From the IMG/VR virus record IMGVR_UViG_3300033388_007794, positions 1 through 50,807 of that record: a DNA stretch of 50,807 nucleotides, one strand, 5' to 3'. Source of the DNA: a virus. Taxonomy: Duplodnaviria > Caudoviricetes. The notes under the pieces were generated by a model that did not search any database, was not told the DNA's origin, and saw only the letters and a program-made list of their open reading frames with translations. Below, piece by piece: positions 1 to 50,157 of this stretch. The translations under genes and the position numbers were made by a program. Position 1 is the first letter of the stretch. Each line of letters begins with the position of its first letter.

Positions 1-976
1 GCTTGAGCACGTCCGCCGCAAATTTACCCAGCTCGCTCCACAAATGCAGGTATTCTTTGGGATAAGGAGGATCGGTAAAAATGAGATTAACAGTTTCTGC
101 TTCAACCTTTAATTTGCGGAAGTCGCAATGATAAAGCTGAATGTTAGTATCTACACCAGCGTCCGTTTCTTCAATAGCAGACCTTTTCGCTTCCCTGGCG
201 ATTCTTTCTAACCGCTTTAATTCAACTCTTTTTGCCGGGATAGCCTTCCCTGCTATACCGACCGCCTTTATTACTCGTTCAATGTCCCTGGGCTTGTCTA
301 CCACAACATACGGTTTTGGCTCCGGTTTTTCAATCAGCATATCGTCTTCTTCGTCGTAGCTCTCTTCTAAATCAAATGCACTCTTGTCATAAGTAAATTC
401 CTCGTGACAGTTGCTACACTCTATCTTCTTTGGCCAACCCATATCGTCTAGCCACTTTTTGCTCCATTTTGCATGGCCGCAGTAAGGACATTCCAGTGCA
501 GGAATAGCTAAAAACCAGTTCACTTCAGCCTTCTTGTGTTTCCTGGCCGGGTACTGCTTGCCGTCAGTGCCGGTGATAGTCTCAGGTGCGGAAATTTCCG
601 CACCTCGGAACCAGTATCTTATAGTTCCTTCATCCACCCCCAGCACCTTCGCAATTCTCCGGTAACTCCAATTGTACGGCGGTAGGCGCAACTCCTTAGC
701 TTTCTGTTGCTTCCACTCCTTCGGTAAATGCCGCCGGTGAATGTTCAGCTTTAATACATGCTCGGCTTTTTCGTCCTCGCTTAATCCAATGCGGACAATG
801 CTGGGCCATTCTTTTATTCCTAATTCCTGACACGCCCTTACCCTATGGTGGCCATCCAAAATATTGCCATCTTCATCATACTCAACCGGCACCAACACAC
901 CACGCTCTGCTATATCTGCCTTCAGTGCTTCATATTCGTCCTGTGTCAGCGGAGGCAGTAATTGATACTTTTGCAC
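1..976 (-). CDS. ParB-like N-terminal domain + HTH + Zn-ribbon + amino (N6A/N4C) DNA methyltransferase fusion; runs off the left edge
   Basis: Not in ORF track. Manual translation from GTG at 976: MQKYQLLPPLTQDEYEALKADIAERGVLVPVEYDEDGNILDGHHRVRAC (ParB DGHHR), WSYRRIAKVLGVDEGTIRYW (HTH), CPYC...CSNC, then NLIFTDPPY (MTase motif IV). GGGAGAG RBS upstream. Confidence 0.85.
   Translation of the reverse strand, partial: MQKYQLLPPLTQDEYEALKADIAERGVLVPVEYDEDGNILDGHHRVRACQELGIKEWPSIVRIGLSEDEKAEHVLKLNIHRRHLPKEWKQQKAKELRLPPYNWSYRRIAKVLGVDEGTIRYWFRGAEISAPETITGTDGKQYPARKHKKAEVNWFLAIPALECPYCGHAKWSKKWLDDMGWPKKIECSNCHEEFTYDKSAFDLEESYDEEDDMLIEKPEPKPYVVVDKPRDIERVIKAVGIAGKAIPAKRVELKRLERIAREAKRSAIEETDAGVDTNIQLYHCDFRKLKVEAETVNLIFTDPPYPKEYLHLWSELGKFAADVLK
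584..605. repeat. Perfect 22-bp palindrome AGGTGCGGAAATTTCCGCACCT (parS-like)
   Basis: Read directly; lies just downstream of the HTH-coding segment of the ParB-MTase gene. The parS role is inferred. Confidence 0.6.
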
Positions 977-1020
977 TTTCCATCTCTCCCTAATATTTTT
1001 CCCCTCTCCCTTTGTAAATA

Positions 1021-1090
1021 AAAAACCGCCTGGCAGAAAGGCGGGAGAGTACACCTTTCCTTTCGCTCGCGCGCAGCTAGCCAGAGCGGT
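1021..1090 (-). promoter_or_regulatory. Structured leader/attenuator-like RNA upstream of the ParB-MTase gene
   Basis: Minus strand: outer stem ACCGC-T-CTGGC/GCCAG-GCGGT followed by a T-run; inner stem GAAAGGTG/CGCCTTTC. The CTCTCCC in its loop is complementary to the downstream GGGAGAG RBS. Confidence 0.5.
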
Positions 1091-1115: not shown

Positions 1116-2018
1116 CTACAATCTCCTCCGGGCAATTCCTTCACAGCAACGGCATGCAGGATGCAAAGGCGGCCCCACAATTCCACCTTCATAAGTCCCG
1201 TTTATCGGTGCTCGCTTGCCGTCCATCTCCTCACAACGTTCACAAGCCCGCTCATCAGGCGTATAAATCCATTCCCTCTCTACTTCGTTCGGATCAAGCA
1301 ATCCTTCCTCCACCGCCTGGGACCAGCATTCTCGCACTCCATAATTGCTGGCGGCCATGGTTTCAGTACGCGCAATCAGCTCCGCTCTTCTCCGCAGCAA
1401 CCGCTTCGCGTAATTGTCCGCCATCTCATTAACCTGTTTTAGCGGCCGCGTGCCGTCTTCGGCAAGCCTCCGCCAGTAATTATCGACGGCCCGCATTTGT
1501 CTTTCGGTCAACCCGATATAATTTCGGATTTTCCTCGCCTGTTCATATGGATGCCCGCCCTCCTCAAACGCCTGGCGGATTATCGCCCGGATGGCCTGAC
1601 GGCTTTCCTCGGTTATCTGCGTAATCAGCTCACCCGTGTGCTGGTTTATAAACTCAACCGCCCTGGGGTTGAGCAGGTCAAATCGAAGCTCCGCTTTCAG
1701 TTTTTCGCCCAGCCTCCGGGCGGTGGCTTTTCCCACTTCACCCACGATCTCCTGAAAAGCATCCTTTACGGTTATGAACCCTGCTCCGAATACGCCCCAA
1801 TCGATCATGTTCTCTACCGAAGCTAAGTCGCCATGCCGTAAAGCTTCCGCCATCCTCGCCACTACAACTTTCCCCTGTGTTGCGGCTACGGCAAGAAAGA
1901 AAGCTCTCTTGACTTTATCCAGCTTGCTGTCAGCTACGCGGTGGAGCAGTTTCCACTCCGGGTCTTTTGGGTTTACAGCTTTTAGGATGCGCTGCTTTGG
2001 TAGCCTTGAAATGAACAT
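1116..2018 (-). CDS. MuF / SPP1 gp7-like minor head protein
   Basis: RAELIARTET, EREWIYTPDERACERC and PPLHPACRC motifs; directly follows portal. Confidence 0.9.
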   Translation of the reverse strand: MFISRLPKQRILKAVNPKDPEWKLLHRVADSKLDKVKRAFFLAVAATQGKVVVARMAEALRHGDLASVENMIDWGVFGAGFITVKDAFQEIVGEVGKATARRLGEKLKAELRFDLLNPRAVEFINQHTGELITQITEESRQAIRAIIRQAFEEGGHPYEQARKIRNYIGLTERQMRAVDNYWRRLAEDGTRPLKQVNEMADNYAKRLLRRRAELIARTETMAASNYGVRECWSQAVEEGLLDPNEVEREWIYTPDERACERCEEMDGKRAPINGTYEGGIVGPPLHPACRCCEGIARRRL

Positions 2019-3292
2019 TATTCCTCATCCACTCCCCCGCTGGGCAGATTGGCTACTTCGAGCAGGTACTTCTCAAGCTCTTTGTTTGGGAACAAAGGCA
2101 TGCCTGCCCCGCTGAGCCGTTGTATAAATTCCCCAAGTTCGCTTAGTTCTACGCTCTCAATGTCCCCGTGGCGAAGCTCGGGGTAATTCTCGACCTTAAA
2201 GTCGTTAAGCTTGAACAGCCTTGACACCGCGTGGGTGTTAAACACATTCTCAATCTCGTCCAGGAAAGCACCAATAGCCACGGCAAACAGATTAGTTTTG
2301 GAACTTGCCAAAGCGTAGCTCCCCACTTTCTGCGTCCCCAGCATGATAAAATCCGCCAGTACGGTCTGGGCAATCCGAGTGTCGTACCTCTGGATAATAG
2401 CACCGGTGTCGAACTGCCGCCTGCCTCCCGTCGAAAGCAACTGAATGTCATACAGTCTATTCCCTTTCTCGTCATAAGCCAGTGGCATGACTATACCTTC
2501 CTGCTGGTCGCGACGTATTTTAGTTACTAGTTCTTTAAACTTCCGTTGCGCCGTTCTTTCCTCATCCGTCTGGGGGTTGGCTACATTAGGCGGCACCCAC
2601 ACGATGGGGAGCCCCGCTAAATCACGCTCAATTCCAATACCCTCAATAGCCTCGATATTCTTTTTGAAATAGTAACTTTTATATGCATTTCTAAGAATCG
2701 ACCTTCCTTCCGGCGAGCCTTTGGTCGCCTCTGTCCTGAAAAGCAGCGACTTTTCTATCGGAATTTCCCTGATTTTATAATCCGGCGGCGCGCTTTGCCG
2801 CATAGCTTGTATGCCGCCTTCCTCGTCGAATACCCACTCAACAAGCGTTTCCTGCGCCCGGATAGGGAGCTTGCGCCAGCCGATGCGACCGTCGGTGTAT
2901 TTACTTCGCTTCGCGGGGTTGCGGCTGTCTCCCATACGGCGCTTCAGGACTATTTCATGCCAGGACCACCCGAATACCAGCATAGACAGAACTTCGCTAA
3001 TTGTATCTTGCCAGGACATACTCATATCATAGAGACAGCTTTCCAAAAACGCTGCCGCTTCCCTGTCAGCGTTGCTCGTCCCGGCGGCTTCAACCCGCCA
3101 TGTAACCTGACGGCAGAGCATCTTGATAGCAAACAGAATAGCGCCAATTACCGGGTCGTTATCACGCATTTCTTTATAGACTCGGATGGCTTTAACGCCC
3201 TGGAGCTCGGGCAACCACTCCTCGGCTATGTAGCCGCCCCAGCGAGATAAGCCTGTGCTGCCCAATTCAAGGAAAATGTTTGTCTGCGCCAA
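2018..3292 (-). CDS. Portal protein (DUF935-like)
   Basis: Position after terL; EMRDNDPVIG, PEGRSILRNAY, EGIGIERDLAGLP and GSYALA motifs. Confidence 0.85.
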   Translation of the reverse strand: MAQTNIFLELGSTGLSRWGGYIAEEWLPELQGVKAIRVYKEMRDNDPVIGAILFAIKMLCRQVTWRVEAAGTSNADREAAAFLESCLYDMSMSWQDTISEVLSMLVFGWSWHEIVLKRRMGDSRNPAKRSKYTDGRIGWRKLPIRAQETLVEWVFDEEGGIQAMRQSAPPDYKIREIPIEKSLLFRTEATKGSPEGRSILRNAYKSYYFKKNIEAIEGIGIERDLAGLPIVWVPPNVANPQTDEERTAQRKFKELVTKIRRDQQEGIVMPLAYDEKGNRLYDIQLLSTGGRRQFDTGAIIQRYDTRIAQTVLADFIMLGTQKVGSYALASSKTNLFAVAIGAFLDEIENVFNTHAVSRLFKLNDFKVENYPELRHGDIESVELSELGEFIQRLSGAGMPLFPNKELEKYLLEVANLPSGGVDEE

Positions 3293-3295
3293 ACC

Positions 3296-4540
3296 TCATC
3301 GCCTCCAGCGGCTTTCGCCTTCGATACTAGTAGGAACAAGAATAGGTACTGCACGACTGAAATGAGTAAAAAGTGCATACCTGTTTCTATCTTGACTGTG
3401 ATCATTCTGTTTTAATGGTTTGTCTTCGCCTTTCAACTGTGCCTTTGGGTCCCACACATAAGAATTGAACTCAGCAATAGTATGCCTGCAGCTCGGGTCA
3501 ACAAAAAACCGCTCCTGGGTCAGCATAGACGCCACAAAGCGGATTCCATCTGTAACCTCATTATCCGCACCTTTTACCTGATAACCCCGTTTTCTGAGTT
3601 CAGCTATGAAACTGGTGGCCGAGGGGTCGACATATATCGCCTCCGGCCTAATATCACCAAGCCACTCTTTGAAGTCATCGGCATACTCAGCGTCCGTCTT
3701 TTGTCTTCCTGCCTCTTTGGAGTCATACCAGTACTCCCTTGTCAGGTAGACCACAGGTTTCGAGTCGTCATTCCAGCCGTAAAGCCCGAATGTGCATGGG
3801 TTGCTGGTGCCATAGTCTATCCCTACTATGAACCGTTTCAAACCTGCAGGAGCAAGTCTAACATGTTTGGATTCGTCCCACATGTCATAAACCGCACCTT
3901 CAGCCTGCACCCACAGACCTAAGATAAAGCGTTTATACCACAGGCCTACGTATTCTTTTTTAAGCTCTTCAACAAAATCTGGGTCGAGATTTAAATTGTC
4001 GTCAAGCTGGAAACGCCAGCGTTTTAAGTTTAGTTCGCTGGTGCGTTCAAGGTAATTTTTATTGAACCAGTGATAGGGCGAGTCCGGGTTTGTTGTCCCG
4101 ATAAACCGCGCCCCCGGCACTGAAAGCCGGGAAAGCAACATAGTAAAGAAACTCTCCGGCCACAGCGTTATTTCGTCGCCATAGGCTCCGACCAGCGTCA
4201 TGCCTCGGATTTTACCTTCGGCCCGCTCGTCACTGGCCCCAGCCAGGTATACCCGTCGGCCAAACAGCGTCGCTTCGCCAGCACCACGATTAAGCTTGAA
4301 GTGCTTACTCCCTATCACCTGCTCAAGCAGGTCAAGCACGTTGCGCTTCAAAGTCCGTTCCGTCTTACCCACCATGAGCAGTTCGCCTGGCGGGGCTTCG
4401 GCTACAAACGCAATCCACGCCACCAGGCTGGCGATTGTCTTGCCGGAACGGACGGAGCCATCGAGGATATTCAAACGTGCGGTGGTATTGACAACAACGT
4501 TAAGCTGCTTCCGCGAAAACTTCCCCCAGGCAAAACTCAT
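3296..4540 (-). CDS. terL: Terminase large subunit (PBSX-type)
   Basis: Walker A GSVRSGKT, Walker B YGDE, TTNPDSPYHW, nuclease GIDYG and DHSQDRNRY. Confidence 0.95.
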   Translation of the reverse strand: MSFAWGKFSRKQLNVVVNTTARLNILDGSVRSGKTIASLVAWIAFVAEAPPGELLMVGKTERTLKRNVLDLLEQVIGSKHFKLNRGAGEATLFGRRVYLAGASDERAEGKIRGMTLVGAYGDEITLWPESFFTMLLSRLSVPGARFIGTTNPDSPYHWFNKNYLERTSELNLKRWRFQLDDNLNLDPDFVEELKKEYVGLWYKRFILGLWVQAEGAVYDMWDESKHVRLAPAGLKRFIVGIDYGTSNPCTFGLYGWNDDSKPVVYLTREYWYDSKEAGRQKTDAEYADDFKEWLGDIRPEAIYVDPSATSFIAELRKRGYQVKGADNEVTDGIRFVASMLTQERFFVDPSCRHTIAEFNSYVWDPKAQLKGEDKPLKQNDHSQDRNRYALFTHFSRAVPILVPTSIEGESRWRR

Positions 4541-28482: not shown

Positions 28483-29574
28483 CTAATTCGGCCTAATCAG
28501 CCTGGCTTGCCTGCCTTCCCATTTGACCAGGTAGCCCATATTTCCGCCGACGAAGCGGACAGGGACGAGCATTCGACTCTTTTCGGAAATTCTGGCAGGT
28601 TCGTCCATCAAGATTTCCCTGCCATCAACGTCTGCAAGGACGCTGTCAGGGCGCAGGATAATCTCCTTTGCCTGCCTCGGAACTACGGCGTCTGTAGAAG
28701 TCCATGATTCAAAAAAATACCAGCAGACGTCTCCGCCACCGGTCGGGTCGAAATGCGTCAACACGAACTCGTAAGGCAAGTAGGCGTAGCCTCCCTGCCC
28801 CCACTGCGTTCCCCAGGAATTCCGCAGAATGAACGCGTGCTTACTGTCGTCATAGCCGACCAGGGCGACGGCGTGCCCTCCAAGAATGCGTCCCCGGGGA
28901 ATCGGGATGACATAATCCGGAGTTTTAACGTCGAAGAAGTTTTCGCAGACAAGCAAAGCTCCGACGATGGGGCCTTCCCGACTGATTGCTTCTTTCATCA
29001 ATTGGACGGCCCTTTGTCGCTGCTCTGGTGTATCTGTCGGATCTGCCAGCTTTGCGTAGGAAGCTATCACGTAATCTTCGGCGGCCTCGTGGTGAAAAGA
29101 CCTCACTTCGGGAACCTTCGGAGCGGATAGACTCAGCAGTTCTGAATAAGGCAAGCAATCCTCCGAACACACGCCATAATCTTTGAGAACCTTGTACGCG
29201 ACTCTCAAATACGTCCCTTCGCGGTCGGGTATTCCATCTTTCTTTTTGCACATGGCGTAGAGGTAAGCCGCGGACAGCCCGTTTGCCGGGAAGTCTCCTT
29301 GCGAGATTTCCTCGAAGGCTTTGTCCGACCAGGCAACAGCGCACGCCGCGCACGAGCCTCTACTACCCTGGTTGAAGACAGGCGGCAGGTTCGGCCTGTA
29401 ATCAACCTTGTCTGGTAGTGGCGTTTCGGGAGCGCGCGCCTGCAAAACGCGCTCGTACAGGAAGTCCCGCTTGTCCGGCGGGCTGGGCTGACAGGGCAAC
29501 AAAAAATCCCCGTACTGTTGCGGGGATTCTTCTACCGTTTTTCGCAAATTAAGATAATTTTCAAGCTCAATCAA
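28483..29574 (-). CDS. Papain-family (C1) cysteine peptidase with C-terminal copper-amine-oxidase-N-like domain
   Basis: NQGSRGSCAACA, GGHAVALVGY, RNSWG; C-terminal SRMLVPVRFVGGNMGYLVKW. Confidence 0.85.
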   Translation of the reverse strand: MIELENYLNLRKTVEESPQQYGDFLLPCQPSPPDKRDFLYERVLQARAPETPLPDKVDYRPNLPPVFNQGSRGSCAACAVAWSDKAFEEISQGDFPANGLSAAYLYAMCKKKDGIPDREGTYLRVAYKVLKDYGVCSEDCLPYSELLSLSAPKVPEVRSFHHEAAEDYVIASYAKLADPTDTPEQRQRAVQLMKEAISREGPIVGALLVCENFFDVKTPDYVIPIPRGRILGGHAVALVGYDDSKHAFILRNSWGTQWGQGGYAYLPYEFVLTHFDPTGGGDVCWYFFESWTSTDAVVPRQAKEIILRPDSVLADVDGREILMDEPARISEKSRMLVPVRFVGGNMGYLVKWEGRQARLIRPN

Positions 29575-30706: not shown

Positions 30707-31384
30707 ATGAAGCGTTTCTCTGTTGGCCTACTTTCTGGCTTGATGATCGGCCTGCTACTGGCTACCACCACCTTTGCTTTTGCTTCCCAACCCATAAAGC
30801 TTGTCGTCAACGGCAAGGAGATAGTCTGTGACTCGCTAGCATTCATTAAAGACGGTCGGACGTTCGTTCCAATACGATTTGTGGCTGAGGCACTGGGAGC
30901 AAAGGTGGAGTGGGATGGCGCAACAAATAGTGTAGTTATTACTACAGCTGAAAAAATAAGTTCTCCACTAGGAGGGAGTCCTATGACTTATTCTATTGGT
31001 GAGAGTATACAATTAGATGAGATTAAAGTTGTCGTGCATAACGTAGACTATCTTACCTATCCATCTGGCGAGAAAAGACATTGGGTGATGACCAGAGATG
31101 ACTACCGGATGTGCCTCTTAGATCTGGAATACACGAATATTACAGACGAAGCCATATACCTTTATAGATACTTACCTTTTCCGCTTGACGAGTCGGGAAA
31201 AGTCATCGTCGCTCCGCGTAATGTAGTTAGGGGCTTCGCTCCCGAAGAAAATTTTGATGCTATACCTCGTATCCTGGCTCCAGGAGAAAGCACAAGGTTT
31301 AAATTCGACATCGGTATACCCATCGATAGGGTGCCGTTAAAGGCCATCAGAATAGACAAAGCGGTAATTTCGCTTCTTCAATAG
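30707..31384 (+). CDS. Secreted copper-amine-oxidase-N (stalk) domain protein; moron
   Basis: Signal peptide, GRTFVPIRFVAEALGAKVEWD; opposite strand to the late operon; candidate TTTACT-17-TAAAAT promoter upstream. Confidence 0.85.
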   Translation: MKRFSVGLLSGLMIGLLLATTTFAFASQPIKLVVNGKEIVCDSLAFIKDGRTFVPIRFVAEALGAKVEWDGATNSVVITTAEKISSPLGGSPMTYSIGESIQLDEIKVVVHNVDYLTYPSGEKRHWVMTRDDYRMCLLDLEYTNITDEAIYLYRYLPFPLDESGKVIVAPRNVVRGFAPEENFDAIPRILAPGESTRFKFDIGIPIDRVPLKAIRIDKAVISLLQ

Positions 31385-43841: not shown

Positions 43842-44174
43842 TCACTTTCCTTTTGCCTTGTCAAGATTGAGCGGAGCAAGTTCATCCATTAACCGCTCTT
43901 CTCGCTCTGTCTGCCTATCTTCTTCCTCCGGTGTCAGGGCCTTCCCGGAATGGCGTTTATCCCCATGATGGGTACGCTCAGCGAGGCCGATAAACTCGGC
44001 CCCGCATTCAGCGCATTTATAAGTTTCAGCTTTCTTCTCAACCGGGGCAAAGTAGCCCAGGCGTATTAACTTTTCATCATTTTTCGCGCCAACAAGTTCT
44101 ACAATTTGTCCCCGGTCAAGTTCCTGTCCAGCATAGCCGAAAGGACGTCTGGCCCAATAGTATTTTTTCGGCAT
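43842..44174 (-). CDS. Hypothetical head-region protein with Zn-finger-like segment
   Basis: CAECGAEF...H..K.H; overlaps the capsid stop. Confidence 0.65.
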   Translation of the reverse strand: MPKKYYWARRPFGYAGQELDRGQIVELVGAKNDEKLIRLGYFAPVEKKAETYKCAECGAEFIGLAERTHHGDKRHSGKALTPEEEDRQTEREERLMDELAPLNLDKAKGK

Positions 44175-45130
44175 TATGCGACAGCCCCCGACATAAAGAG
44201 TCCGGCGTTGGCACCGGTCTTCTTCTGGTCAAAATAAGTGTTCGCCTCTATGATGTCCACTTCACGTTCCTCATCGCGCATCCGCTTGATGTACTGAAGC
44301 GCGTTTGCTACTACCTGCCAAACAAAGGTATATCCGGCAGCAGGGGTAAGCAGAGACGGCCTGTCGGGTACATAGATCATCAGGGCGTTCTTCCCCCAGA
44401 TCCGGCTGTACGATACCGAAGCCTCAGCAGTTCCTTCAGGAGATGCAGTATAAATCGCACGACCAATCAGCACTTTTTCAAATTCCGCCAGGGCTTTGAA
44501 CAGGTCAAGAGTAAGTTGCCCCTTTTGGGTGTACTTAATTGTGTCAATTAAATCCGGGTGCCACTTCAGTTTTAACCAAACTTGCTTACCTAGTACCAAC
44601 ACATTAGGCTCGCGCCCGATTAAGGCTTCAACTGCATCTTTATAGTCGGCCAAATCGACTAGCGGGCTGGAATTGGCATAGTCGCTCCAGACAGTAAAAT
44701 CAACACCTCCGGTCTTGTCCGTACCCCAAACACCGGTCGTGAAAAAGTCGGTAGCGAAAGCAACCTCCCGGCGCATCTGAAGCTTATCCGTCACCCATTC
44801 GGTCGCGTCCCGGTCGAGGTTGAACGGCGCGTCTGCATTCTTCCTAGTTTCATCGTCGATCTCTTTCCTGATCGAGTACCGGTCGCAGAAGTACTTCGCA
44901 GTCGTTGTTACCTTCCATCCGCCGCCGGCAGACTTGGTGCCAGGCGCACGCAGCTTGGCCTCATCCCTGAACCAGTGAGACTGGTCGTACTGCGGGATGA
45001 TGTCCGACTGTTTCTGCACAGGTACAATCGGGAAAATCTGGTCAGCAATATATTCGGGGTTCTTATAGCCAATAGAAATGTTTGTGAGAAGTTGATCAAT
45101 ATGGAGACTCGAAGCCACAGGGTTAGCCAT
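44174..45130 (-). CDS. Major capsid protein
   Basis: HIDQLLTNISIGYKN..YIADQIFPIVPV; 318 aa; follows scaffold and decoration genes. Confidence 0.88.
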   Translation of the reverse strand: MANPVASSLHIDQLLTNISIGYKNPEYIADQIFPIVPVQKQSDIIPQYDQSHWFRDEAKLRAPGTKSAGGGWKVTTTAKYFCDRYSIRKEIDDETRKNADAPFNLDRDATEWVTDKLQMRREVAFATDFFTTGVWGTDKTGGVDFTVWSDYANSSPLVDLADYKDAVEALIGREPNVLVLGKQVWLKLKWHPDLIDTIKYTQKGQLTLDLFKALAEFEKVLIGRAIYTASPEGTAEASVSYSRIWGKNALMIYVPDRPSLLTPAAGYTFVWQVVANALQYIKRMRDEEREVDIIEANTYFDQKKTGANAGLFMSGAVA

Positions 45131-45564: not shown

Positions 45565-46443
45565 TTAAATCTTGACCGCAGTCTCTTTGCGGTACTGCTC
45601 ATAGAGCTTAGGGTTCTCGGCCAGCACTTTTGCCAGTGCGTCCATCCTGCTCAAGTTGGCGTCTTTCTGCACCAGCCCCGCTGCCATGGCCTCGACCTTG
45701 GCAACAGCGGAGTCGCCAGCAGGCATGCCGCCTCGACCAATTTCGGCGTAGAGTGCGCCTTTCTCAATGGCTTCATTAGCCGCCTTCAGTACACCTTCGA
45801 GCTTGGTGTACTCTTCCGGCGCTTTTTCAGCCAGGCCCTTGAGCACCAATCCGAATTCTTCCGGCTTGGTTGGTAAATTAGCAAACTCGTCAGCGGCTTT
45901 CTGAATAAACTCCTTGCGAAGCTGCTTGTCGCGCTCTTCCTTGAGTACTTTTTCAAGCTCTTCAGCTTTCTTGACGGCTTCCTGCTGTTCTTTCCAGAGT
46001 GCCTCTACCGCAGGACGAACTTCTTCTGGAATGCCGGAAAAGTCATAGCTTCCGTCTTCCTTTTTGGTCGGTGCCGGATAGCCATATTTCTTCTTCTTGT
46101 CCTCTTCTTCATCTTTTTTGCCCTTAGCCTTCTCAGCCGGTTCGGGGTAGCCGTAGCCGGCAAGACCGGCTAAGGTTTTCATGATGTCTTTCGGGAGCTC
46201 GTCCTTGTATGCCGACAAAATTTTGAGTGCTCCTTTTACGGCTCCTTTTGCTTTGTCGGACAGCTTGGCTGCTTTCAAAACCTCTTCGACCTTCTGCTCG
46301 TCTTCAAGTTCAGTTTCCAAAACAGCCTTGAGAATTTCTTCCATAGGTGGATCATCCTCCTTAAAAATTAGGAACTTTTTACGATTTGCCCCGCGTGGGA
46401 CGAGGCTCACTTCCACAACATCTAAATCTTTCAGCCTATTCAC
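45565..46443 (-). CDS. Scaffold protein with N-terminal protease-fold strand
   Basis: LKDLDVVEVSLVPRGAN N-terminus, K/E-rich coiled coil, NPKLYEQY tail. Confidence 0.8.
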   Translation of the reverse strand: MNRLKDLDVVEVSLVPRGANRKKFLIFKEDDPPMEEILKAVLETELEDEQKVEEVLKAAKLSDKAKGAVKGALKILSAYKDELPKDIMKTLAGLAGYGYPEPAEKAKGKKDEEEDKKKKYGYPAPTKKEDGSYDFSGIPEEVRPAVEALWKEQQEAVKKAEELEKVLKEERDKQLRKEFIQKAADEFANLPTKPEEFGLVLKGLAEKAPEEYTKLEGVLKAANEAIEKGALYAEIGRGGMPAGDSAVAKVEAMAAGLVQKDANLSRMDALAKVLAENPKLYEQYRKETAVKI

Positions 46444-46446
46444 ACC

Positions 46447-49400
46447 TTACACCACCTCCTCACGAATCCCGAAACCCCCGACACTAAAGCCCGTTATAAC
46501 ACCCTCTTTAACTTGTCTCCATAAATTGTCATCGCTAATATGAACGCTCATTATCCATGACCCCTTCTTGACCTTATGGCCGTTGATTTCTAAGTCCTGT
46601 GGAGCAGTATACGATTCAACAACTTCAGCTTTAGCTTTCTTGCTATGCCGATAACCAATCACACGGGATTTGAGCATAAAACGATAGGCCGCATCTTCTA
46701 TGCTCTGGGCTGATATAACATCGCCCTGAGAATCCACCGTGTCTGGTTCCAGAACTACTCCCGTTACTATTTGCTTTTCGTCCGCTTTAAGTATCGCGGC
46801 GTGGTATTCTTTAGCAACTTTGGCTTTTGCCACATCGATTTTTTGTACGGGCTTCCCTGGTTCATCAGCCCACAACAACCACTTTTGCCCCTTTTGCTTC
46901 AGCTCGCTTATAACATCAGCGAGGTCGTGGGTTTTTGTGTACGGTTCTTGCGATTTTGGCCGGTTCACAAGCCACACCCTGCGCCCCTGTTCCATCGGGG
47001 CATATTGGATAAGCAACCGTCCTTTCAGATGCTTGCCGTCTAAGAAAAGCTCGCGGCCATGCTCTCTAGCGAATGAGAACTTATATTCGCCACCGTCAAG
47101 CTTAAAAAATTTACTATACGTCTGGCTTGTAGAACCTGGCCCACCTGGCTCGGAGATATAGGGCTCTTTATCTGTAATAGTGATCCACTCAACTGGCTGG
47201 AATAACTTAAACTGGCCCTGTAAGCTGTCATCGGGCGGCAGTTCAAGCAAGCGGCTTCCATATTTTGTCTTGCGGATGTCTTCGGTATCTCCTTCAAAAA
47301 CCGAAAAGCCCCAAGCTGTTTCATCGTCTATCTGAAAGCGTAAATCACCGTGGACGCTATGATTAGTCTTCAATAGCTCCTCATGGCTAAGCTTGGTTTC
47401 TTCTTCTGTCAGCCCACGCCAGTGCATCTGATATACCCACCTGCCGCGCCCGGACTTGGGGTACATGTTATGCCACTCTTCTTCATATAGCTTTGCTGCT
47501 ACTTCAGCTCTGGTATCGCCTTCTTCGCCTAAACGGTCAGCTTTCTTCACTTGCTTTAATGCCTGCTTGATCTGCTTTACCTTCCTTGCTACTTCTCCAC
47601 TGTCCCCAAACCGCCTCACCGCTACCGGATGCGGCAAAACAAAATCCGCCCGGTCTCCCAGGACGGATTTGGCGGTCTGGCCGAGCGCCACTACAATTTG
47701 CGGGTTGGCTTTATCAAGTTCCTGATACAACCAGTCGCGCCACTCTTCTATTTCCTGCTCGTTCGGCTCTCTCACTCTTCCTCTGTCGTCCGTTAACAGG
47801 ACTGGCACAACGTTAGTCAAGAAAACGTCTTTTCTGGTTAAGCCCAATGGTTTCAGGTAAAGCTCGTTCAACGTTTCTCCACAAGGCCCGACAAACGGCT
47901 CTCCCCTTGCCGCTTCAATCGGGCCGGGGGAGGCACCAATAAAAGCTATCTTTGCATTCTTCGACCCGGTGCCGGGGACTATCTCCCGCGCGGCCTTTTG
48001 CAATACTTGCCCCCGTTTGGCAATGTCAATAGCTTGCGCAGCGGTGTATGGTTCTTTGCGTGTTTTGTCTACATCAATAGGACGCGCACCGAGCCAAGCC
48101 AGAACTTTCTTTTCTTCATCAGGGAGAAGTTCAAGTACTTCGCAGGTTATAACATCCCCGACCTGAGCCTTAACGGTGCTGGTGGAGAAAGTTTTACCTA
48201 AATCAATATATTCCTTGTCGCCAAGCTTTCGGGTATTACGCCACTCCATGCCCACGCTCGGTAGGAGGCCACCATAATAATTTACCGTGCCAGGCGTCTT
48301 AGTTTGCTGAACCTGCAATACTTTTACCTTTAATTCAATGACCTTTTTGACTTTGCTCCACTCGTCAGTAGCCCCGTCCAGTTCATACTTCCCGCTAGCC
48401 GTCTTTGCCACAAGCCCTTCCGAGCGATCCTGATTGAATGCCCACCGAGCAGCAACTTTAAGCTCCTGCAAATTATTGCACCATTTGACCTGGGTGATAG
48501 CAAAATTCTCCTTGCCCTTCAAGTACTTATCATAGAACTGCTCCAGCTTCTTCCTGCGTTCTTTAAACGGTTTTTCGTGCAGGTCTTCATCCCAGTATGG
48601 CAGGTCGAAAACTGTCAGTATCGGCGTTTCATTTTGTTTGATGTCCGGCTTGTCGGCATTGAAAGTCATCAGGTCAGGACGCGCCACCCGCTTACCGCCA
48701 CGGAGCATCCCCAAATCGCAGTCCAGGATGAAATCGGCATCTATTTTCTCTAACGCGGCTTTAAGGCCGGCGAACTTGTGCAGTTGGTCCTTACCGTACT
48801 GCCCTTCAAACCAAAAGCGAACGCCTTTACCTTTCTTACCCTCTGCTATTCCTCGAAAGCCATTGAGCTTACCTTCCACATCAAAAAGCGTTTTGTCTTT
48901 ACCCCACTTTTCCCACAACTCATCAACCGTATATAGCTCCGTATATAATGCCACCTGCGGCTTCGGAGGAATAAACTTCTGGAATGGCTCAAGTCCCTCC
49001 TTAGTTACGTCCTCCGGCTTGCGGAACACGCCACGCACATATACCAGATCACCGTTCTCGATCTCCTTCAACTTTTCGACCTCGAACTTCGGCCTACCCT
49101 CTAACAAGTCATCCTGGGTCCAGAAGACAAAGCTAGACTTATTCCAAAAGCTCTTGTGATCGGGATGGTTAAACGCACCCTCGCCTTTCGTGCTCGGTAC
49201 CTCAAACACGAACCTGCCGCCGGGCTTCAGCACGCGCCAGATTTCGGCCATGATTTTTTCTTTGTCCGACAGGTGCTCCAAAACGTGGTTTGCACGTATC
49301 TCATCTGCGCTGTCATCCGGGTAGGGTATACCTTGCTCAAGATCATGAAGCATGTCCACCTGCGGACCCGGCTCTTTGTCGATCCCCGTATAGCCTTCAG

Positions 49401-50157
49401 GTTTAGAATCGCCACAGCCGAGGTCGAGCTTAAGCGAATCCCCTTTTACTACCTGCCGCTTCGGTTCCTCACGCCGAAGAACTAACGAATAGCAGGGCAT
49501 GAAATCTGCATGGCTCCCCTGGGGTGAATCAATAAAATGTAGAATACCTTTCTTCTCTGGGTCCAGCACTTTCCGCACAGGCAACCAGACATTGTCAGCT
49601 TGGATGAGGAAGTTTTCTCCAGATTCGTCCCTGTTGGCCCTGAAAAGCACGTCTATATCGTTCGGGTTCTCTTTGCCAACAGCCGCAGATCCTACTACCG
49701 ACACGAAGTTGGGAACCACAACCACTTCCTCTGGCAGTTCTGCCAGCTTCGCCTCCAGGCTCTGCGCCTTCTTCACATCGCGCAGTTTCTTGGCCTCCTG
49801 CACAAGTTCGCTATTCTCGTCATAATCGAAGCCTCGCCGTTCAAATTCGTCGAGTACCCAAATGGTCGCATTTACAATATCCTCCACCGATTCCTTGCGC
49901 TTCTTAGCTGCGCTATACCATTGATGCAGCCTGAGCCATGCCATGCGAACCTCATCATCCGAAGCGCCCTTCAACTTATCAGGCCGCATCTCGGTCAGAG
50001 CCATCTTCTCCAGGAAAGACGGCTCCTCCGGCTCGCGCCAGCGGGCTTTGCCCCCAGCAGAGGGCATAGCAGCTTTATGCAAATCACGCATTAGCCAGTC
50101 GGGTAAGTATTGTTTTGCTTTTTCAAGAAGGGTTTCGAGATATTCTTTGCTTGGCAT
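46447..50157 (-). CDS. Head polyprotein: NTase + SAM-MTase + ATP-dependent ligase + UDG-like + LigD phosphoesterase + XkdF-type prohead protease
   Basis: GS..DID (aa 156-169); DLGCG/HVLEH (245-295); KLNGFR, FDL, EGLVAK, WSKVK (430-604); IGASPG/PFVG/TNVV/HP (740-844); QMH...HGDLR (910-940); GVVLEPD.VDSQGD...GYRH...GSW...GFSVGG (1133-1228). Confidence 0.88.
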   Translation of the reverse strand: MPSKEYLETLLEKAKQYLPDWLMRDLHKAAMPSAGGKARWREPEEPSFLEKMALTEMRPDKLKGASDDEVRMAWLRLHQWYSAAKKRKESVEDIVNATIWVLDEFERRGFDYDENSELVQEAKKLRDVKKAQSLEAKLAELPEEVVVVPNFVSVVGSAAVGKENPNDIDVLFRANRDESGENFLIQADNVWLPVRKVLDPEKKGILHFIDSPQGSHADFMPCYSLVLRREEPKRQVVKGDSLKLDLGCGDSKPEGYTGIDKEPGPQVDMLHDLEQGIPYPDDSADEIRANHVLEHLSDKEKIMAEIWRVLKPGGRFVFEVPSTKGEGAFNHPDHKSFWNKSSFVFWTQDDLLEGRPKFEVEKLKEIENGDLVYVRGVFRKPEDVTKEGLEPFQKFIPPKPQVALYTELYTVDELWEKWGKDKTLFDVEGKLNGFRGIAEGKKGKGVRFWFEGQYGKDQLHKFAGLKAALEKIDADFILDCDLGMLRGGKRVARPDLMTFNADKPDIKQNETPILTVFDLPYWDEDLHEKPFKERRKKLEQFYDKYLKGKENFAITQVKWCNNLQELKVAARWAFNQDRSEGLVAKTASGKYELDGATDEWSKVKKVIELKVKVLQVQQTKTPGTVNYYGGLLPSVGMEWRNTRKLGDKEYIDLGKTFSTSTVKAQVGDVITCEVLELLPDEEKKVLAWLGARPIDVDKTRKEPYTAAQAIDIAKRGQVLQKAAREIVPGTGSKNAKIAFIGASPGPIEAARGEPFVGPCGETLNELYLKPLGLTRKDVFLTNVVPVLLTDDRGRVREPNEQEIEEWRDWLYQELDKANPQIVVALGQTAKSVLGDRADFVLPHPVAVRRFGDSGEVARKVKQIKQALKQVKKADRLGEEGDTRAEVAAKLYEEEWHNMYPKSGRGRWVYQMHWRGLTEEETKLSHEELLKTNHSVHGDLRFQIDDETAWGFSVFEGDTEDIRKTKYGSRLLELPPDDSLQGQFKLFQPVEWITITDKEPYISEPGGPGSTSQTYSKFFKLDGGEYKFSFAREHGRELFLDGKHLKGRLLIQYAPMEQGRRVWLVNRPKSQEPYTKTHDLADVISELKQKGQKWLLWADEPGKPVQKIDVAKAKVAKEYHAAILKADEKQIVTGVVLEPDTVDSQGDVISAQSIEDAAYRFMLKSRVIGYRHSKKAKAEVVESYTAPQDLEINGHKVKKGSWIMSVHISDDNLWRQVKEGVITGFSVGGFGIREEVV

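Follow-up and report, generated by a model that had tools for sequence, protein, structure and literature searches.

A chain of enzyme modules ending in a prohead protease

The DNA analysed here is IMG/VR record IMGVR_UViG_3300033388_007794 (Duplodnaviria; Caudoviricetes), a stretch of 50,807 nucleotides that we call the window and that as a whole looks like a complete temperate siphophage genome. Near its far end lies an open reading frame (ORF) for a polyprotein of 1236 amino acids (P0001), composed of seven to eight modules designated, from the N-terminus, N1a, N1b, NT, MT, LIG, UDG, PE and PRO (Table 1). The last of these is a prohead serine protease of the XkdF type, and a short motif ending in lysine recurs at the seams between the modules. 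The placement of this motif, and its possible role as the recognition site of the protease, are the subject of this analysis.

The modules were assigned by profile and structure searches. Pfam places a methyltransferase at residues 264-326, within MT, and an ATP-dependent DNA ligase at residues 423-604, within LIG. Residues 728-851 match the Pfam superfamily of uracil-DNA glycosylases (UDG) at 76 bits against a cut-off of 24, while the NCBIfam scores are under their cut-offs for both TIGR00758 (81 vs 125) and UdgX (91 vs 190). The UDG module reads GASPG (P0001 residues 728-760, window ~47878-47976) where family-4 enzymes have GEAPG, and its best NCBIfam match is the UdgX family of uracil-DNA binding proteins; the module may bind uracil instead of excising it. 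Up to an E value of 1, Pfam gave no usable match for N1 and NT, for PE or for the scaffold protein encoded next door. NT resembles a minimal nucleotidyltransferase by a single pattern only, GS...DxD. The PE module was recognised by its fold: with a separate AlphaFold2 model of residues 873-1236 (mean predicted local distance difference test score, pLDDT, 87.6), the top seven Foldseek matches were all LigD phosphoesterases (E 3.6e-6 to 6.6e-4, TMt 0.52-0.79). This separate model was needed, as a model of residues 1-1200 matched solely DNA ligases in Foldseek; a profile search of PE plus the protease against PDB sequences gave marginal matches (best E=0.0035).

The protease module matches XkdF (PF14550) at 101.2 bits against a cut-off of 24, with residues 1123-1232 aligned to positions 6-124 of the 126-position profile, and also matches phrog_3017, a head maturation protease (E=1.7e-38). 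S1225 (in GFSVGG) and D1142 never vary among 51 sequences, and conservation of H1171 and D1146 reaches at least 90%; H1171 is invariant in a 30-row alignment of the polyprotein. By analogy with HK97-type proteases, S1225 and H1171 are presumably catalytic. XkdF is the last known module in all homologues that have it. A second clade of polyproteins (P0012, P0015, P0017, P0019, P0020, P0024, P0026 and P0028) is distinguished by a protease domain with an insertion and by a short additional C-terminal tail (...MPKVTFVDLV...).

A lysine motif at the module seams

An earlier, sequence-only reading of the window had proposed that a hydrophobic-x-K-(A/G/E) motif occurs at every domain boundary and forms a self-processing code. 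All eight tetrapeptides that it listed are found at the residues given for their lysines (LHKA 28, VKKA 130, VVKG 238, VTKE 386, LQKA 721, VKKA 872, VAKE 1116 and ILKA 1124). Seven of them do lie at module boundaries; the eighth, LHK28/A (a slash marks the bond after the lysine), falls within a helix, its lysine is kept by few homologues, and it is probably not a cleavage site. A ninth seam, LEK51/M, had been overlooked. About 30 homologues start at the residue following K51, and nearly all longer ones keep Φ-E-K there, where Φ stands for L, I, V, M or F.

In the single sequence the motif is not conspicuous by number. The form [LIVMF]-x-K-[AGE] occurs 14 times against 7.7 ± 2.6 in shuffled sequences (P=0.016, 5000 shuffles), including six copies absent from the earlier list (K13, 162, 261, 816, 1111 and 1198). 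Plain [LIVMF]-x-K is found 32 times with 32.5 ± 4.6 expected, so the signal is one of position and not of count. Over the whole protein, Φ-x-K is likewise not enriched in the major capsid protein (MCP), portal, terminase, MuF or cement protein.

The position of the motif was examined across the family. A search of a large protein collection found 116 homologues from very diverse metagenomic sources, 100 of which were aligned, and hidden Markov models (HMMs) of the seven query modules were placed in 113 of them, giving 524 junctions. These homologues drop or reorder modules (P0036 has UDG ahead of the methyltransferase) and gain others, including a D12 methyltransferase, a metallo-beta-lactamase fold, a 2H phosphoesterase, GNAT and a P-loop kinase. 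Within a junction window of -6 to +3 around the predicted module start, Φ-x-K was present at 385 of the 524 junctions compared with 22.4% of random 10-residue windows. The 303 hits among 392 query-type junctions are partly circular and partly due to shared descent, as the HMM starts were fixed at the query lysines. The only independent evidence is that of the novel junctions, where the upstream module differs (82/132 with the motif), and of the AlphaFold boundaries described below. When similar upstream 20-mers were collapsed, 56 of 91 novel junctions carried the motif (p=1e-15), as did 29 of 47 non-redundant junctions with an upstream stretch of at least 60 residues that matches no query-module HMM (p=8e-9). 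Shuffling within the windows produced 127.5 ± 8.8, 31.7 ± 4.7 and 13.5 ± 3.1 hits for query-like, novel and strict novel junctions against 303, 82 and 34 observed, and none of 2000 shuffles reached the observed counts.

The junctions also define the motif more closely. At P1, lysine alone of the 20 residues is enriched (3.3-fold), followed by Q at 1.4-fold and all others at 1.0 or less; in the strict novel subset K accounts for 34 of 59 junctions and the runner-up, E, for 10 of 59. P3 favours V (2.6-fold), I (2.0-fold) and L (1.7-fold). At P1', 275 non-redundant sites are enriched for A (3.2-fold), S (2.4-fold) and Q (2.9-fold), with G (1.2-fold) and E (1.3-fold) at background. Of the [AGE] proposed earlier for this position only A is retained, and S and Q had been left out. 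Judged from these alignments, the seams are really marked by [V/I/L]-x-K with A, S or Q as the usual next residue, and the family as a whole bears out the observation far more strongly than the polyprotein of the window does by itself.

A short motif in a protein rich in Lys, Val and Ala could fall at seams by chance, as the sequence-only reading had itself cautioned. That caution holds for numbers, given the total at expectation and the single-sequence P of only 0.016 for the [AGE] form. It does not hold for placement: the junction enrichment withstands both composition-matched shuffling and the collapse of redundancy, and it agrees with the structure-model boundaries (p=2e-4 to 4e-4). We consider coincidence scarcely credible as an explanation.

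When a homologue lacks a module, the lysine is the exact point at which the flanking modules meet. Homologues without the methyltransferase pass from the NT ending ...[IV]VK/ to the ligase start ALEPGDRFPPQK, and those without UDG pass from the ligase ending ...VLQK/ to the PE start EEGxTR, for example ...VLQK/SSFEEGETR. Added modules end in the same way (...KPARVAK/AEALRVDLGC, ...VEHVLK/GVSPGSRF and ...IKELLK/DEDSEGETR). At the K721 seam, many other homologues have V-x-K a few residues later, VLKVEVGK/E in place of VLQK/A, a sliding that fits a linear motif over a fixed structural position.

Seams in the structure model

The AlphaFold2 model of residues 1-1200 was built from the 30-row alignment and has a mean pLDDT of 78. 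Short dips in pLDDT separate well-folded domains at residues 384-386, 722-724, 875-881 and 1116-1129, and longer stretches of low pLDDT cover residues 35-50, 130-163 and 202-240. The four short dips are matched by K386, K721, K872 and K1116, each of which is located in its dip or shortly ahead of it. Segments with pLDDT below 50 include 130-152, 202-240 and the four short dips. Of the 14 motif copies, eight are within 3 residues of a segment below 50, where 15.7% would be expected (p=4e-4), while the lysines of the polyprotein taken together show no significant association (21/123). The settings of the seams in the model differ, with coil at 386, the end of a strand at 721 and the end of a helix at 872.

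These settings bear on whether the signature might have nothing to do with proteolysis and instead be a structural cap, a site of lysine modification or cross-linking, or an inherited linker in one lasting multi-enzyme chain. K1124 is in strand 1 of the protease and K872 ends a helix, as a structural role would have it; some seams are common by descent, since the homologues form a single family; and the text of PMC5512222 holds that many polyvalent proteins work uncut. Against this, the motif follows mutually unrelated modules in differing secondary-structure settings and shifts by a few residues among homologues, as a linear motif would. Lysine is the sole enriched P1 residue and is followed by a small residue at P1', a conserved protease predicted to be active is fused in the same chain, and scaffold and MuF share the motif. 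This explanation appears quite unlikely. The conservation of K1124 in particular may be structural, or it may mark a site of self-trimming.

The motif also tends to be commoner where the protease is present. Junctions with the motif number 274 of 366 in protease-bearing homologues and 8 of 17 in long-tailed homologues that lack it (Fisher p=0.02), in a comparison that is small on the protease-less side (17 junctions) and confounded by divergence. A host protease with trypsin-like or other lysine specificity could in principle cut the seams, and host enzymes process head proteins in some phages, such as Staphylococcal phage 80-alpha (PMC8569155, in its text). The lower frequency of the motif in protease-less homologues speaks against such an enzyme, as does the retention of both motif and fused protease in homologues of very diverse metagenomic origin, and we rate its involvement as very improbable.

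The motif in scaffold and MuF

The six scaffold copies of the motif named in the sequence-only reading are present, as is ILKA at residue 13 of MuF, near the N-terminus. The scaffold protein opens with the element EVSLVxRGANxKKxFxIxK (residues 1-29, 46357-46443, minus strand), which ends in Φ-x-K in 51 of 51 distinct scaffolds; FLIFK/E is the site in the window. Its Φ-x-K count is 17 against 10.7 expected (p=0.02), and [LIVMF]xK[AGE] occurs 11 times against 3.6 ± 1.7 (p=3e-4). Among 25 distinct MuF proteins from related loci, some at ~30% identity, 18 have Φ-x-K-A within the first ~25 residues, a count made by hand and without a chance control. Together the alignments strongly support that the motif marks module seams and recurs in scaffold and MuF. 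The scaffolds of the second-clade loci (L030-L064) open with the EVSLV element as well.

The complex predicted for the protease domain with scaffold residues 1-60 scored 0.43, compared with 0.00 for the best of three controls. Of the solved complexes, 116 of 157 reach the mark applied to such predictions, as do 2 of 215 mismatches, and scores of 0.60 or less take in only 18 of the 157 solved complexes together with both passing mismatches. The runs agree on at least 75% of contacts, and the partner has a pLDDT of 46-49. These predictions weakly suggest that the protease docks on the N-terminal element of the scaffold. In P0057, P0058 and P0071 the chain extends ~140-270 residues past PRO, and the scaffold is fused behind the protease. 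The protease seems to have moved from an ancestral gene of the order element, XkdF, scaffold into the polyprotein, with the two other parts forming the scaffold gene. In Lactococcus phage 56701, a stand-alone XkdF gene (L069:3363-4412) joins the scaffold N-terminal element, the protease and a scaffold-like tail in one chain, and carries the annotation 'DNA methyltransferase'.

The scaffold ORF begins 3 nucleotides downstream of the polyprotein and is followed by the cement and MCP genes. Protease and scaffold matches occur together in 54 of 68 related viral loci, most of these 54 also hold an MCP, and the order polyprotein, scaffold, MCP is repeated in the related loci (54 inspected at the boundary). 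In the window the polyprotein and scaffold ORFs share a frame, with only the TAA and one codon between them (46441-46452, minus strand). We considered a split gene or read-through and rejected read-through, the frame relation in the 54 loci being +1 in 26, +2 in 18 and in frame in 10. The in-frame arrangement is put down to chance because the frame varies among loci and the scaffold has its own Shine-Dalgarno sequence and start codon.

This setting is relevant to where the seams would be cut. Cleavage, whether in cis or in trans, could be a cytoplasmic event that precedes encapsidation or does without it, so that the polyprotein would serve the co-expression of late enzymes and not as head cargo. 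The polyprotein stops right after the protease, without a scaffold-like targeting tail, docking on the scaffold is predicted at a low score, and packaging has no sign in the sequence, all of which would suit cytoplasmic cleavage. Set against this, every related locus examined has the gene between MuF and scaffold, within the head-morphogenesis block, the motif is conserved in the head-internal scaffold and MuF, and the scaffold is fused behind the protease in the three homologues described above. Prohead proteases are generally held inactive until assembly. For these reasons we regard cytoplasmic cleavage as unlikely.

Proposed processing in the procapsid

Cleavage by the protease is the best available interpretation of the seam signature, though unproven. 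We put the probability at about 0.6 that the seam motifs are cleavage sites of the C-terminal XkdF protease and that the enzymes are released in the procapsid. The polyprotein would be made late, alongside the head proteins, and would enter the procapsid with the scaffold, possibly through docking of the scaffold N-terminal element on the protease domain. Once activated there, the protease would recognise [V/I/L]-x-K in exposed linkers and cut after the lysine, in the scaffold (at FLIFK28/ and other sites), at the MuF N-terminus and at its own seams. The folded enzymes, now free, would stay behind in the head and accompany the DNA. The procapsid is proposed as the place because the gene is in the head module of all related loci examined, because the scaffold is fused to the protease in some homologues and because the motif is common to head-internal proteins.

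A number of points weigh against this proposal. All support for cleavage comes from sequence and model inference: the ORF, domains, motif positions and enrichment, cassette boundaries, model linkers, conserved catalytic residues and synteny were computed, and from these we infer cleavage, the enzyme responsible, the procapsid as the place, the timing, packaging, ejection and delivery to the next host. The motif is absent from the window at 23% of query-like and 38% of novel junctions, and the query-like set is circular in part. With plain [LIVMF]-x-K at its expected number, ~24 further copies of Φ-x-K within the domains would have to be protected by folding. K872 is within a predicted helix, and K1124 lies inside both the Pfam XkdF model and a strand of the protease fold. 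The NT region is poorly modelled, which leaves the boundaries at 130 and 238 to be set by the alignments. The rule of cleavage after lysine is a secondary statement on S78 relatives, and our literature search found no published specificity for XkdF-type (S78_2) proteases. No scaffold tail is fused to the protease here, and the complex prediction only weakly supports docking of the protease on the scaffold. Packaging and ejection would involve folded enzymes of ~15-37 kDa.

If processing in the procapsid is correct, the mature head-internal proteins of a large and mostly uncultured group of phages could be predicted from [V/I/L]-x-K/[A/S/Q] in linkers that precede an XkdF protease, and XkdF proteases would have their first specificity. 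The evolution of polyvalent proteins would then be seen to proceed by swapping cassettes delimited by protease sites. A kit for DNA end repair and base modification (ligase, LigD-type phosphoesterase, UDG-like protein and methyltransferase) would be a probable virion cargo, and such a virion-borne kit would bear on how incoming phage DNA survives host nucleases.

A more far-reaching proposal, which we hold only tentatively and regard as doubtful, is that the polyprotein is a self-dismantling kit whose swappable cassettes are cut apart in the procapsid, and whose ligase, 3'-phosphoesterase, UDG-like protein, methyltransferase and further enzymes are injected and repair or protect the arriving genome. 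Were that so, the cut-site code would permit free swapping of cassettes, the system would parallel retroviral Gag-Pol processing on the phage side, and a rule would be at hand for finding virion-delivered enzymes in metagenomes.

Other features of the window

The features are collected in Table 1. Past MuF, the minus-strand gene order leads to an ORF that runs off the window start. The minus strand also encodes tail proteins, an endolysin, a serine integrase and an S24/HTH repressor. The far end holds, in order, a 178-residue zinc-ribbon protein, the polyprotein, the scaffold-like protein, the cement protein and MCP. In a tblastn search against cultured phages, none of 282 records covered at least 80% of the polyprotein, and its architecture was not found there.

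Table 1. Features of the window and of the proteins that it encodes. Site names give the residue number of the lysine, and a slash marks the bond after it.
Feature	Position	Strand	Remarks
Polyprotein ORF	46447-50157	-	1236 aa; ATG start, TAA stop
N1a, aa 1-51	50005-50157	-	two helices and disordered tail; optional; ends LEK51/M
N1b, aa 52-130	49768-50004	-	helical, without known family; ends VKK130/A
NT, aa 131-238	49444-49767	-	nucleotidyltransferase-like; pLDDT 29-55; ends VVK238/G
MT, aa 239-386	49000-49443	-	class I SAM (S-adenosylmethionine) methyltransferase (Methyltransf_11); ends VTK386/E
LIG, aa 387-721	47995-48999	-	ATP-dependent DNA ligase, adenylation and OB domains; ends LQK721/A
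UDG, aa 722-872	47542-47994	-	family-4 / UdgX-like uracil-DNA glycosylase fold; ends VKK872/A
PE, aa 873-1116	46810-47541	-	LigD-type 3'-phosphoesterase fold; ends VAK1116/E
PRO, aa 1117-1236	46450-46809	-	XkdF / Peptidase_S78_2 prohead serine protease; polyprotein C-terminus
LHK28/A	50071-50082	-	helix 20-33; K in 6/61 aligned homologues
LEK51/M	50002-50013	-	junction; absent from the earlier list
VKK130/A	49765-49776	-	junction; K in 20/50 aligned homologues
VVK238/G	49441-49452	-	junction; K in 57/65; invariant in 30-row alignment
VTK386/E	48997-49008	-	junction; K in 45/57; pLDDT dip 384-386
LQK721/A	47992-48003	-	junction; K in 38/90; dip 722-724
VKK872/A	47539-47550	-	junction; K in 54/63; end of helix 855-877; dip 875-881
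VAK1116/E	46807-46818	-	junction; K in 30/49; coil between PE and protease
ILK1124/A	46783-46794	-	K in 83/85; first beta-strand of protease
Scaffold-like protein	45565-46443	-	292 aa; own Shine-Dalgarno GAGGAGG, GTG start
Scaffold IFK28/E	46357-46368	-	sole invariant column of 50-row scaffold alignment
Scaffold ILK39/A	46324-46335	-	Φ-x-K in 43/51 scaffolds
Major capsid protein	44174-45130	-	phrog_1005; motif not enriched; without N-terminal extension
Terminase	3296-4540	-	
Mu-type portal	2018-3292	-	
MuF	1116-2018	-	
MuF ILK13/A	1977-1988	-	near N-terminus
Zinc-ribbon protein, 178 aa	50173-50709	-	N-terminal CxxC...CxxC
ORF off window start	2-1054	-	
ORF fragment, 33 aa	50706-50807	-	
BTG-like ORF, 148 aa	8721-9167	-	
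Papain-family protease fusion	28483-29574	-	
Cu_amine_oxidN1 protein	30707-31384	+	

The zinc-ribbon protein is encoded directly upstream of the polyprotein and has no family match in Pfam (E up to 1), PHROGs or NCBIfam. The ORF that runs off the window start gives weak ParB-N, HTH, Lar-like zinc-ribbon and methyltransferase signals, and a 33-residue ORF fragment enters at the window end, its start lying outside. If the genome is circular, the ORFs at the two window ends could be consecutive parts, placing a ParB-methyltransferase-like gene between MuF and the polyprotein.

Further away, a 148-residue ORF matches Pfam BTG (PF07742) over nearly the full profile (E=2.3e-17), which is surprising in a phage early region, the BTG family being familiar from animal anti-proliferative proteins. 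A papain-family cysteine protease fused with a Cu_amine_oxidN1 domain adjoins an Amidase_3 endolysin, and a second Cu_amine_oxidN1 protein is encoded on the opposite strand. The papain and Cu_amine_oxidN1 genes suggest a Bacillota (Clostridia-type) host.

Comparison with known systems

Part of the enzyme set recalls LigD, the ligase of bacterial non-homologous end joining, which like the polyprotein has an ATP-dependent ligase and a 3'-phosphoesterase fold in one polypeptide. The AEP domain of the LigD polymerase was not detected in the polyprotein, the ligase module scores far under the NCBIfam LigD cut-offs (45-49 bits vs 228-373; TIGR02776 45 vs 373), and LigD has no counterpart of the UDG, methyltransferase and protease modules.

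The statement in the sequence-only reading that HK97-family proteases cut after lysine is in print for two S78 proteases, HK97 gp4 and T5 pb11, which remove scaffold domains (PMC13517437, in its text, citing Duda 2013 and Zivanovic 2014). The text of PMC8569155 reports cleavage of the phi12 capsid protein after R and of Ccm after K. HK97 gp4 and T5 pb11 are serine prohead proteases of the same clan as PRO, with the difference that they belong to MEROPS S78 and PRO to the sister Pfam family XkdF / S78_2. They process the delta domain of the capsid protein and themselves, whereas here the predicted substrate is a chain of enzymes.

T4 gp21 recognises the motif L/I-x-E, in which P3 is hydrophobic and P1 charged. 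Protease gp245 of the giant phage SPN3US trims many head proteins, which are later ejected, at a defined motif with a fixed P1 (PMC10052503, in its text). Both resemble the processing proposed here in having a short motif, a fixed P1 and head-internal substrates. Their substrates are each encoded by a gene of their own and are trimmed of an N-terminal propeptide, with Glu at P1; the predicted substrate here is one chain, with Lys at P1.

In retroviral Gag-Pol and picornavirus P1-P3, enzymes and protease are made as one chain with short cleavage codes at the seams, and processing is tied to particle assembly. Such an arrangement would be unusual for tailed dsDNA phages; the polyprotein further differs from these systems in its highly variable set of modules, and the likeness is without evolutionary relationship.

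The closest likeness is with the polyvalent proteins of phages and conjugative elements described by Iyer et al. 2017 (PMC5512222). As its text presents them, these proteins carry many enzyme domains in one polypeptide with a prohead-type (assemblin-like) peptidase at the extreme C-terminus, as here, and they are predicted to be processed when the virion assembles and to be delivered along with the DNA. The polyprotein falls within the two to fifteen unrelated domains per polypeptide by which they are recognised there. That text names no cleavage motif and no combination of ATP-DNA-ligase, LigD-PE and UDG; 'ligase' appears in remarks on RNA ligase only, and 'uracil' once, in the reference list (uracil phosphoribosyltransferase). 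Our literature search likewise found neither a seam motif for polyvalent proteins nor this domain combination, although similar architectures may be listed in the supplementary and FTP files of that paper, which lay outside its range. What is new over the polyvalent proteins as described, on the evidence of the alignments, is a defined seam motif together with modules that are exchanged as cassettes bounded by that motif.

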